53,483 nt of DNA from Candidatus Limnocylindria bacterium (GCA_041496945.1 JBGQFO010000005.1:1-53483), one strand, 5' to 3'; shown: positions 14,849 through 19,298, counted from the first letter of the stretch. A program made the numbers and translations. Notes: generated by a model not told the origin, from the sequence alone.

Positions 14849-15661
14849 GTGAACGCCATCGTCACGCTCCCGCTGGTGCTCGCGGTGGTGCTTGTCGAGC
14901 TCGCGGTGGGCGGCGCGTTCCTGATCTGGTTCCTCGACCGCCGCGGGCAGGCGCCCGGCGGATTCCTGAAGCTCACCGCCGCGGTCGACGCGCTCTGTGC
15001 CGCGGCCGCGGTGGGTCTCATCCCGACGATCATCCCGCGCGATCTGCAGAAGCTCGGCCTGGATGCGGGACCGCTGGCGTCATTCGGACAGGCGCTCGTC
15101 GTGTTCCTCGTGCTCGTCGTGATCCAGCTCGTGCTGACCTTCGTCCCCCTGCGCGACCTGCGCAACGTCGCCGGCATCCTCGCGCTGCTCGTCGGGATCG
15201 GCACGCTCGAGGTGGCGGCGATCTCGCGCCCGAGCCAGTCGCCGTTCGACGTGTTCGCCCTGCTCGCGTTGCCGCTCGGTGCGCTGGCTCTTGGCGGGAC
15301 CGATGCGGCCATGCTCCTCGGCCACTGGTACCTGGTGACGCCGAAGCTCAGCCCCGGTCCGCTCCAGGCCGCCGCCCTCGTGATCGTCGCCGCGGTCGTC
15401 CTGCAGATCGGGCTCGTCGCGGTCACCTACGCGCGCGGTGATCTCGTCGGCACGACCTCGCAGGTCGGGCTCATCGTCGCGCTCGGGCTGCGCATCGGTG
15501 TCGGCCTGCTCATGACGCTTGGCGTCGCGCTGGGGGGATGGTGGACGGCTCGCACGAATACGCAGTCATCGACCGGCCTGCTCTATGTGGGCCTGGGCAC
15601 CGCGCTCGCCGGCGAGATCAGCGCGCGGGTGTTGTTCTTCCTGACCGGGGCCGCCGTTTAG
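14849..15661 (+). CDS. Uncharacterised polytopic membrane protein (about 8 TM, AMLLGHWYL motif)
   Basis: Strongly hydrophobic ORF; TACCGT 8 nt before the GTG. Confidence 0.75.
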   Translation: MNAIVTLPLVLAVVLVELAVGGAFLIWFLDRRGQAPGGFLKLTAAVDALCAAAAVGLIPTIIPRDLQKLGLDAGPLASFGQALVVFLVLVVIQLVLTFVPLRDLRNVAGILALLVGIGTLEVAAISRPSQSPFDVFALLALPLGALALGGTDAAMLLGHWYLVTPKLSPGPLQAAALVIVAAVVLQIGLVAVTYARGDLVGTTSQVGLIVALGLRIGVGLLMTLGVALGGWWTARTNTQSSTGLLYVGLGTALAGEISARVLFFLTGAAV

Positions 15662-17628: not shown

Positions 17629-18120
17629 ATGAAGAAGGACGTCGGGCCACTCGAGAGCGACGGGGTCTGGGTCATCCACGGCGGCCACGCGACGCCAAAG
17701 GCTGCTCGGACCGGCGACCCGAGGCCGGACATCGAGGCGCTCGACTTCAACAACCCCTACGGCTACGACATCGAGCGCGTGTGGTTCCAGGGCAAGATCG
17801 TCTTCGCCAGCGAACAGGGCGAGCTCGACATCGACGAGACCAAGGTGAAGGTGGCGCAGGAGTACCAGGTCGTCTACTCGGTCGAGCTCGACGGACGCGG
17901 GAAGCTGAAAGACGGCGCGGAGCCGGACCGCGTGCCAGGACAGCTGAACATCTACGACACCGTGCCCGGCATGCCCGGCTACAGCCCCATCTGGCAGTTC
18001 AACTACGTCATCGTCCCGCGTGACTACCCGGCGAACACGCTGCGCTCGGAAGAGGACTGCGTGCGGAGCTGCTACCCGATCAAGAGGAGTCGCGTCTTCG
18101 AGAACTGACCGGTGCTCTAG
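17629..18120 (+). CDS. DUF7482-like protein, probable selenoprotein (UGA at 18106-18108 read as Sec; the conventional call would end at 18108)
   Basis: D.VPG..GYSP.W motif; readthrough gives FEN-U-PVL-TAG, matching the NCP C-terminus I recall for this family; CACAAT 6 nt before the ATG. Confidence 0.65.
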
Positions 18121-18137
18121 GGCCCGCGGTCAGCGGG
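18109..18137 (+). promoter_or_regulatory. Candidate bacterial SECIS element
   Basis: CCCGC-GGTCA-GCGGG hairpin at 18123-18137; GGUC loop starts 20 nt after the UGA. Confidence 0.45.
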
Positions 18138-18624
18138 AGACGCGCCTCCGCCGATGCTCGCGAGCGGGCTCCTCGTCGAGCTCTTCCCACTCGCGAGAGC
18201 TGTACATGTTCGCCGCGAGCCCGGCGTCGACGAAGACGGTGATGAGGCCGGCGATCGTCAGCAGGAACGGCACGGGCGACGGCGCCTGATTCCCGAGCTC
18301 GAGGCCGCGGAGGATGGCGGAGACGCCATACAGCCCGACGATCGCCACGCCCGCCAGGATGTCGAGCTGCGCGAGTCCACGCTCCTCCGGGACGATGTCG
18401 AAGCGCTCGGTGAGCGCGGCGATCGCGGCAAGACCGGCGACGAACGCCGTCGTCACGCACAGCCACTGCGCGACGATCACGTACCCATTCGTGTCGCGCG
18501 AGCCGAGCCCGAGCCAGGCCATGATGTCGGCGAGCGTCACGCCGAGCGCGAGCCCACACACCAGGAACGCGAGGTGTGAGCGCGGCGAGAAGCCCAGACG
18601 ACGGCCCTGCAGGAGTTCCTTCAC
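18130..18624 (-). CDS. Membrane protein, DUF2231-like (4 TM)
   Basis: Four hydrophobic helices and a charged C-terminal tail; TAGCAT upstream of the GTG. Confidence 0.65.
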   Translation of the reverse strand: MKELLQGRRLGFSPRSHLAFLVCGLALGVTLADIMAWLGLGSRDTNGYVIVAQWLCVTTAFVAGLAAIAALTERFDIVPEERGLAQLDILAGVAIVGLYGVSAILRGLELGNQAPSPVPFLLTIAGLITVFVDAGLAANMYSSREWEELDEEPAREHRRRRVSR

Positions 18625-18869: not shown

Positions 18870-19298
18870 ATGGCGAGCGAGGACGCAACCCGCATACGCA
18901 CGGCGCACGGCGACCTCACTCTCGAGGAGATCGCCGAGCTGCTGCCGGGCACCGGCGAGATCATGCAATCCGTCGGGAACGCCTGGTGGAAGTGCGCCCA
19001 CGCGGCGCGGGGCGGCAACTTCGCACTCGCCGCGTACTTCGCGCGGCGCGTACGCGGGCTCCAGCGCAAGCTCGCGATCGTCCGCCCGAAGTACGAGCCT
19101 GACCTCGCGGCGTTCGATGCCGAATACATCGCGCCGGTCCTCGCGGCCTGCGATGCCGGTGACCGCGCCGCGTTCGACCGCGCCTACGACGCCGCCGTGA
19201 CGAGGGCGAACGAGCTCCATGTGAAATGGGCCAAGGCCTACATCCGTTGGACACTCCCGCCGGAGCCGCCGACCGACCTCGACCTCACGTCCGGCTAG
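18870..19298 (+). CDS. Hypothetical all-helical protein resembling cytochrome c'-like four-helix bundles but lacking CxxCH
   Basis: PG.GEIM, A..GN..LA.Y, F..AY......AN.LH pattern; TACTAT 6 nt before the ATG. Confidence 0.7.
   Translation: MASEDATRIRTAHGDLTLEEIAELLPGTGEIMQSVGNAWWKCAHAARGGNFALAAYFARRVRGLQRKLAIVRPKYEPDLAAFDAEYIAPVLAACDAGDRAAFDRAYDAAVTRANELHVKWAKAYIRWTLPPEPPTDLDLTSG

Follow-up and report, generated by a model that had tools for sequence, protein, structure and literature searches.

The window, by which we mean the whole 53,483-nt stretch of DNA analysed here (GCA_041496945.1 JBGQFO010000005.1:1-53483, from Candidatus Limnocylindria bacterium, a soil member of the Chloroflexota), very probably encodes a 163-residue cytoplasmic selenoprotein in which the UGA at 18106-18108, the last codon of the annotated ORF, is recoded as selenocysteine (Sec). 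Insertion of Sec at this codon had been proposed in a preliminary description of the sequence, and it is now supported by a conserved TGA in relatives, an aligned Cys in more distant homologues, covariation in a hairpin downstream and the Sec machinery of the lineage.

A reading frame continuing past its annotated end

Translated with TGA read as U, the gene gives 163 residues and ends RSRVFEN-U-PVL (Table 1). Homologues align over window residues 1-163 with the single TGA inside. The preliminary description had read an in-frame CCG GTG CTC TAG after the TGA, which is confirmed on the sequence; it had also reported that the protein lacks a signal peptide, and by inspection of the window protein we likewise find none.

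Table 1 Coordinates of the predicted selenoprotein gene and its downstream element within the window
Feature	Position	Strand	Remark
Predicted full selenoprotein CDS	17629..18120	+	163 codons, UGA160 as Sec, plus true stop
ATG start	17629	+	Inferred: homologues begin MKKD.. or a few residues downstream
ORF as annotated	17629-18108	+	Ends at TGA 18106-18108
UGA probably read as Sec (U160)	18106..18108	+	TGA kept in relatives, Cys at the same column in distant units
Pro161-Val162-Leu163 codons CCG GTG CTC	18109..18117	+	Three codons after Sec; match C-P-[VI]-[VIL] of Cys homologues
True stop TAG	18118..18120	+	Stop at the same codon in 43/43 loci
Cys144 codon	18058..18060	+	Conserved in subfamily; candidate resolving Cys for Sec160
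Cys148 codon, second Cys of CVRSC	18070..18072	+	Private replacement of a near-invariant Gly
SECIS-like hairpin CCCGC-GGUCA-GCGGG, proposed SelB binding site	18123..18137	+	3' UTR; covariation in 43 loci

TGA is retained where a stop codon would drift

A six-frame search of the bacterium's own genome and 60 relatives returned 17 homologues (61-75% identity), each with exactly one in-frame TGA and an alignment reaching residue 163; an eighteenth match (G058, E 1.4e-4, residues 18-55), partial and with no stop inside, was left out of this set. A second scan, limited to a single genome for each species, yielded 39 loci, most of them in MAGs labelled Candidatus Limnocylindria or Chloroflexota. Over the compared stretch, thirteen of these duplicate loci of the first set, and the union comprises 43 distinct loci. 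The pattern applied to them was open to TAA, TAG, TGA or a Cys codon at the Sec column, and TGA stands there in 43/43 (42/42 without L023, from the unpublished genome G023). The codon that follows is CCG in 31, CCC in 10 and CCA in 2; the next is GTC in 20, GTG in 19, GTA in 2, GTT in 1 and CTC in 1; the third is CTC in 24, ATC in 12, CTG in 4, CTT in 2 and GTC in 1. This variation is mostly third-base or conservative and retains P-V-[LIV], a conservation judged on three residues per locus. An in-frame stop comes next in every locus, its identity drifting between TAG (30), TAA (8) and TGA (5). The TGA-CCN-GTN string that the preliminary description expected in relatives is therefore present almost throughout (TGA 43/43, CCN 43/43, GTN 42/43).

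To widen the set, eight 50%-identity representatives were aligned (A3) and used to scan metagenome contigs, giving 59 loci with 60 gene copies, four of them cut by contig ends. Among the 56 readable copies, 55 carry TGA, 48 after Asn and 7 after Leu, and one is a Cys form (TGC-CCG-ATC-ATC) in which reading continues. The scan pattern was built from Sec-type sequences, which biases this set toward Sec forms; such bias does not explain the absence of TAA and TAG. Neither codon, either of which the preliminary description would have counted against recoding, occurs at this column in any of the 17 homologues, the 43 loci or the 56 readable copies. Together the searches yielded 88 distinct genes of the form TGA-CCN-NTN-NTN-stop, a number defined by that pattern, and variants occur in soil and in marine metagenome contigs.

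In protein collections the family is large and shortened. The window protein matches 1078 clusters at 90% identity, which the source names 'hypothetical protein', and the best 120 database homologues all end ...FEN, that is, cut at the UGA. Among 50%-identity representatives there are 299 matches at E <= 0.001, and in 30 of the best 150 the last residue is the Asn just before Sec.

These truncated entries are what one would see were the TGA an ordinary stop, with the protein ending ...FEN and the downstream bases and hairpin serving some other role, for example as a 3'-end stabilising stem. An ordinary stop would, however, drift as the second one does, whereas the first is TGA in 43/43 loci and TGA or TGC in 56/56 readable metagenome copies. 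Moreover, the nine bases after the TGA vary as P-V-[LIV] codons do ahead of a fixed in-frame stop, and distant homologues have C-P-[VI]-[VIL] at exactly that place. We consider termination at this codon very improbable as the sole outcome, and return below to what the hairpin and the assembly contribute on either side.

A further alternative would have TGA decoded as Trp or Gly, in the manner of codes 4 or 25, or would make it a sequencing error or pseudogene lesion. Nothing beyond the in-frame TGA itself speaks for this, and we give it next to no credence: in 5/43 relatives the true stop of the same gene is itself a TGA, the aligned residue in homologues is Cys and not Trp or Gly, dedicated Sec machinery is present in the lineage, and the same TGA recurs in dozens of independent assemblies.

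Cysteine occupies the Sec column in DUF7482-related proteins

With phmmer, query residues of about 95-162 align to proteins composed of two, four or six units (E 3e-55 to 1e-20). When the 150 best 50%-identity representatives were re-aligned to the query, 120 units reached the Sec column, and 100 of these have Cys there; the rest have R (4), Y (3), L (3), A (3), W (2), or M, F, N, S and H (one each). The Cys units share a strongly conserved V-N-C-P-[VI]-[V..] motif. The preliminary description had placed the UGA on the conserved Cys of a VNCP motif, and the alignment bears this out. One Cys homologue with a single unit has the C-terminus VNCPVL, in architecture identical to N-U-P-V-L.

In Pfam, multi-unit Cys homologues fall under PF24298 (DUF7482), with E-values of 1e-10 to 3e-21. 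The window protein scores 11.6 bits against this profile (E 0.22) and six other Sec forms 14-20.6 bits, all below the gathering cut-off of 27.5 bits. An earlier suggestion that the window protein is DUF7482-like thus stands for the Cys homologues and for the shared motif, and fails for the window protein itself at the Pfam threshold. By sequence, the Sec proteins are best described as a single-unit family related to DUF7482 but not members by that threshold, a placement that is well supported. Both groups have the motifs GQ.NI.D..PG...YSP.W, N..RS, SGY and N-[C/U]-P-[VI]; the window protein comprises a single unit and has an N-terminal half of its own, whereas the DUF7482 profile spans two units, and the DUF7482 Cys forms are without Cys144. 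One Cys form (P0128) has a T9SS sorting domain; by eye, some have hydrophobic N-terminal signal-like segments and C-terminal anchors, and one (P0242) a cupredoxin-like tail. A search for the DUF7482 family in 14 control genomes of model organisms and in the bacterium's own genome gave no match, and a literature search for 'DUF7482' found no mention.

Recoding of UGA in bacteria competes with RF2. Both products might accordingly be made, with Sec insertion inefficient and the 159-residue form the main, and perhaps a functional, species; RF2 termination at the UGA would remove only four residues. We find this improbable, though less so than plain termination. The UGA, the three following codons and the hairpin are all under strong purifying selection, which implies that the full-length product matters, and the truncated form would be without the key residue, Cys at the Sec column being the best-conserved feature of the wider family.

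A covarying hairpin beyond the second stop

Two bases past the TAG lies a short hairpin, formed by CCCGC (18123-18127), the loop GGTCA (18128-18132) and GCGGG (18133-18137). There are 19 nt between the UGA and the loop, so that the first loop G is the 20th nucleotide. This hairpin, with its GGUC loop 20 nt past the UGA, had been picked out in the preliminary description, and is present on the sequence as described.

Taken alone, the window hairpin is not significant, a point in favour of ordinary termination: a 71-nt fold has z = +1.53, with 193/200 shuffles folding at least as well. In the 2.2-Mb, high-GC genome of the bacterium, hairpins that combine a 5-bp stem with a GGTC loop number 511, 83 of them with a TGA 14-26 nt upstream, and an Rfam search of the window hairpin returned no SECIS and no other credible match. 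No T-tract or terminator-like site accompanies it; the missing T-tract weighs against the TGA being an ordinary stop.

Conservation in relatives, and not the window hairpin by itself, places the feature far above chance. Covariation was assessed on an alignment of 43 sequences (A2), with a seven-pair helix and a four-base loop. Standard pairs fill 90% of cells in the 43 loci against 75.5% in shuffled alignments, and compensatory changes are found in six of the seven pairs, for example CCCGC/GCGGG, CCTGC/GCAGG, CCCAC/GTGGG and TTCGC/GCGAA. Covariation scores 0.429, compared with a shuffled mean of 0.180 (0/500 shuffles reach 0.429) and with at most 0.124 when the 3' partners are slid by one to three columns; these controls overstate independence because the sequences are related, but the eye readily picks out several different stems with compensating changes. 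In RNAfold predictions for 85 distinct downstream segments, the first hairpin has a GU-containing loop in 79/85, and the loop starts 17-22 nt past the UGA in 79/85. For the six exceptions another fold was chosen, with the same hairpin visible by eye. Loops vary by clade (GGUC(A), CGUGA, CGUGU and AGUU), and the stem is short, 5 bp in the window and 4-9 bp elsewhere.

The bacterial SECIS criteria of Zhang and Gladyshev, from 2005, reportedly call for a stem-loop a short way past the UGA whose apical loop has G(U). Such a GU-loop stem-loop shortly 3' of the UGA is what the family has, as seen in covariation, loop content and the spacing of 17-22 nt.

At UGA 18106-18108, the ribosome would thus be served by SelB with Sec-tRNA(Sec), held by the GU-loop hairpin at 18123-18137; Sec would be inserted, Pro-Val-Leu added and translation ended at TAG 18118-18120. 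Because only three codons follow the UGA, the hairpin falls just beyond the true stop. On the sequences compared, it is well supported that recoding would proceed by standard bacterial SelB-dependent insertion, its distinguishing feature being a SECIS element wholly past the true stop.

Sec decoding in the Limnocylindria lineage

The bacterium's own assembly (80.36% complete, 185 contigs) contains a selD gene (336.7 bits; contig C37:5616-6542, minus strand, locus L006) with an in-frame TGA at the active-site loop, read CAGUGAK. Since a Sec-containing SelD cannot otherwise be made, the lineage needs Sec decoding. The hairpin of this selD combines a 7-bp stem with a loop of GUG and lies farther from the UGA than that of the window gene; the two are unlike, so SECIS shapes differ within one genome.

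In the same 80%-complete assembly, selA was not found, there is no selB above cut-off and no selB winged-helix domain, and ARAGORN reports 40 tRNAs, none for Sec. The best Rfam match to tRNA-Sec there (39.3 bits against a threshold of 47) proved to be a tRNA-Leu and was rejected. The lack of selA, selB and tRNA-Sec in the assembly would suit a TGA that simply terminates.

Relatives supply what the assembly lacks. The selA gene is present in 25/25 other genomes of the genus and 36/36 of the family (tallies that include the unpublished G023 and G031), and it is over cut-off in all 16 relatives that carry the window gene. Five of these carriers were examined for the remaining components, and all five have selB over cut-off together with a tRNA-Sec scoring 73-75 bits. 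The selA and selB genes are adjacent on a single contig in at least three of the five; tRNA-Sec lies on a different contig in the relatives. A gap of a single contig could therefore account for the absence of both selA and selB, and tRNA-Sec would need a second gap. The genomic check proposed in the preliminary description, for selA, selB, selC and selD, thus comes out in part: selD is present in the bacterium's own genome and selA, selB and tRNA-Sec in its relatives, but the latter three were not found in its own assembly.

Predicted structure and the residues around Sec160

An AlphaFold2 model of the window protein, calculated from a 67-sequence alignment, has a mean pLDDT of 89.3 and a pTM of 0.78. 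It is mostly β, with one short helix (141-146) that bears Cys144. Sec160 is placed directly after the last strand (151-159), and for the final residues, U160 included, the mean pLDDT is 93. A Foldseek search of the PDB found no solved structure like the model (best E 1.2); a wide VIA-align comparison with 48,161 chains gave a best Z of 2.3, and a profile search of PDB sequences returned 0 matches at E <= 1. This lack of a structural match does not prove a new fold.

Invariant or near-invariant across Sec and Cys forms are Q105, D110, Y118, S119, N136, R139, S140, S147 and N159. By sequence, these conserved polar columns suggest a binding or active site rather than a scaffold. Cys144 occurs in 120/120 closest homologues and in 66/88 Sec-form genes with DNA, the other 22 having I, V or A, and it is absent from Cys-type DUF7482 units. 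Given its absence from those 22 Sec genes and from the Cys-type units, a Cys-Sec pair is not a general mechanism of the family.

The CVRSC motif to which the preliminary description drew attention does not hold up as a feature. Position 148 is Gly in 119/120 closest homologues and 87/88 Sec-form genes, with Cys only in the bacterium's own genome. Cys148 differs even from the Gly of a 97%-identical protein (P0002), and represents a private substitution or an assembly variant.

The window protein may carry out thiol/selenol redox chemistry in the cytoplasm. More specifically, we tentatively propose a nucleophilic or redox role for Sec160, directed at a small substrate or a thiol partner, and that Cys144 may resolve the intermediate as a selenenylsulfide in the Limnocylindria subfamily. 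The proposal is made because the conserved Cys is a lone one, has given way to Sec in many lineages and adjoins an invariant Asn. Metal or oxyanion handling by Sec160 are live alternatives.

Genomic surroundings and further Sec-form genes

The gene's neighbours in the window are an ABC-2 transporter pair, a membrane protein, an ion-transport protein and an S9 peptidase, which recur in at most 4/42 other loci. After ORFs had been filtered by codon-position GC, no partner family was present in more than 12/43 loci. An upstream minus-strand ORF family, seen at 30 loci in the unfiltered pass, was set aside as spurious long ORFs of high-GC DNA. Three window ORFs, 14849-15661 (+), 18130-18624 (-) and 18870-19298 (+), have no Pfam match at E <= 0.001; two are membrane-like by eye, the third is soluble and 142 residues long, and they are common to only 1-4 of 42 related loci. 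Ten loci of a marine clade share DUF3291, Rieske and other neighbours; their contigs are close kin, and we draw nothing from this.

Among representatives of the Sec form, inspection by eye suggests twin-arginine-like signal peptides in some, ordinary signal peptides in others and an N-terminal peptidoglycan-binding domain in yet others. Two Sec-form relatives (L083:1654-2205 and L120:4-555) look exported, with signal peptides judged by eye; the N-terminus of one resembles a TAT signal plus a lipobox (MKLSKLSRRSFVGLGLGSTAAFLLASC), and in the other there is a fusion to a PG_binding_1 domain (Pfam E 8.9e-13). A single metagenome contig (L084:1614-2887) carries two head-to-tail Sec-form copies. 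Both read TGA-CCC-NTN-ATC-TAG and have a GCCGG/CCGGC-type hairpin each, and the first of them starts with a twin-arginine-like signal peptide.

Near-identical Limnocylindria-type copies appear in MAGs labelled Acidiferrales, Udaeobacter, Saccharimonadales or Bathyarchaeia (L040, L046, L058, L064 and L068), labels that more likely reflect mis-binned contigs than gene transfer.

Outside the window, on the minus strand of contig C163 of the same genome, an ORF reads ...AFDVVILSWTL-TGA-CIAREGMVDALREVHRVLAPRG..., with the TGA at 2800 of the reverse-complemented contig. It is open for 191 codons before the TGA and 142 after, with a GGUCG-loop hairpin 20 nt downstream. By eye it is methyltransferase-like, and may be a second unannotated selenoprotein.

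Discussion

New selenoprotein families are found fairly regularly. Searched against NCBIfam release 20.0, which carries the NCBI selenoprotein family models, the window protein has no match at E <= 1; six other Sec forms and two Cys forms have none at E <= 0.1, apart from peptidoglycan-binding-domain matches in one. Table 1 of a May 2026 review (PMC13188914) lists 119 prokaryotic selenoprotein families or subfamilies. Taken whole, that table holds no PF24298 entry and no N-U-P motif. A literature search of titles and abstracts returned nothing describing the window family. The preliminary description had not recognised this as a described selenoprotein family, and in NCBIfam 20.0 and that review table we find none either. 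We propose a widespread new family, absent from the catalogue compared, that would use the ordinary bacterial mechanism; that it encodes Sec we hold with high confidence.

A broader picture is possible but rather doubtful: a large selenoprotein superfamily, truncated database-wide, with a fold unseen among solved structures, an undescribed Sec/Cys chemistry and exported branches. If the exported branches are true, they would amount to cofactor-less selenoenzymes outside the cytoplasm in soil and marine bacteria.

A position filled by Sec in some lineages is almost always a catalytic or redox residue. For this reason the Cys of VNCP[VI] becomes a target for experiments, and with it the uncharacterised DUF7482 repeat would gain its first functional handle. 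The gene would also offer a clean example of a bacterial SECIS wholly beyond the stop codon, a kind of element poorly represented in prediction tools, and would indicate that Candidatus Limnocylindria, common soil Chloroflexota, carry selenoproteins missed by annotation. If confirmed, the family would stand beside the approximately 119 prokaryotic selenoprotein families catalogued in 2026 (PMC13188914, Table 1).

Among catalogued families, the C-terminal-Sec families of Haft, 'UXX-star' (NF041114 and NF041211) and 'KCU-star' (NF033934), are listed in the same table (PMC13188914). As entered there, they share with the window family a Sec a few residues from the C-terminus, so that gene callers truncate the protein by a few residues and the SECIS hairpin must sit across or past the true stop. 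They differ in having no sequence relationship to the window family, whose motif is N-U-P-[VI]-[LIV]-stop.

Mammalian thioredoxin reductase ends GCUG-COOH, its C-terminal Sec paired with a Cys. There is no homology to the window protein, whose Sec160 ends an ordered strand in the model instead of lying on a flexible tail, and the candidate partner, Cys144, is 16 residues away and subfamily-specific. A possible analogy would nevertheless be a C-terminal Sec forming a selenenylsulfide with a nearby Cys, here Cys144.

The SECIS of E. coli fdhF presents a GGUC loop in which G23 and U24 are essential. Compared with elements of this type, the hairpin of the window family has a much shorter stem, shows no obvious bulged U and is confined to the 3' UTR; what the two have in common is a hairpin after the UGA that carries G-U in its apical loop about 20 nt downstream.
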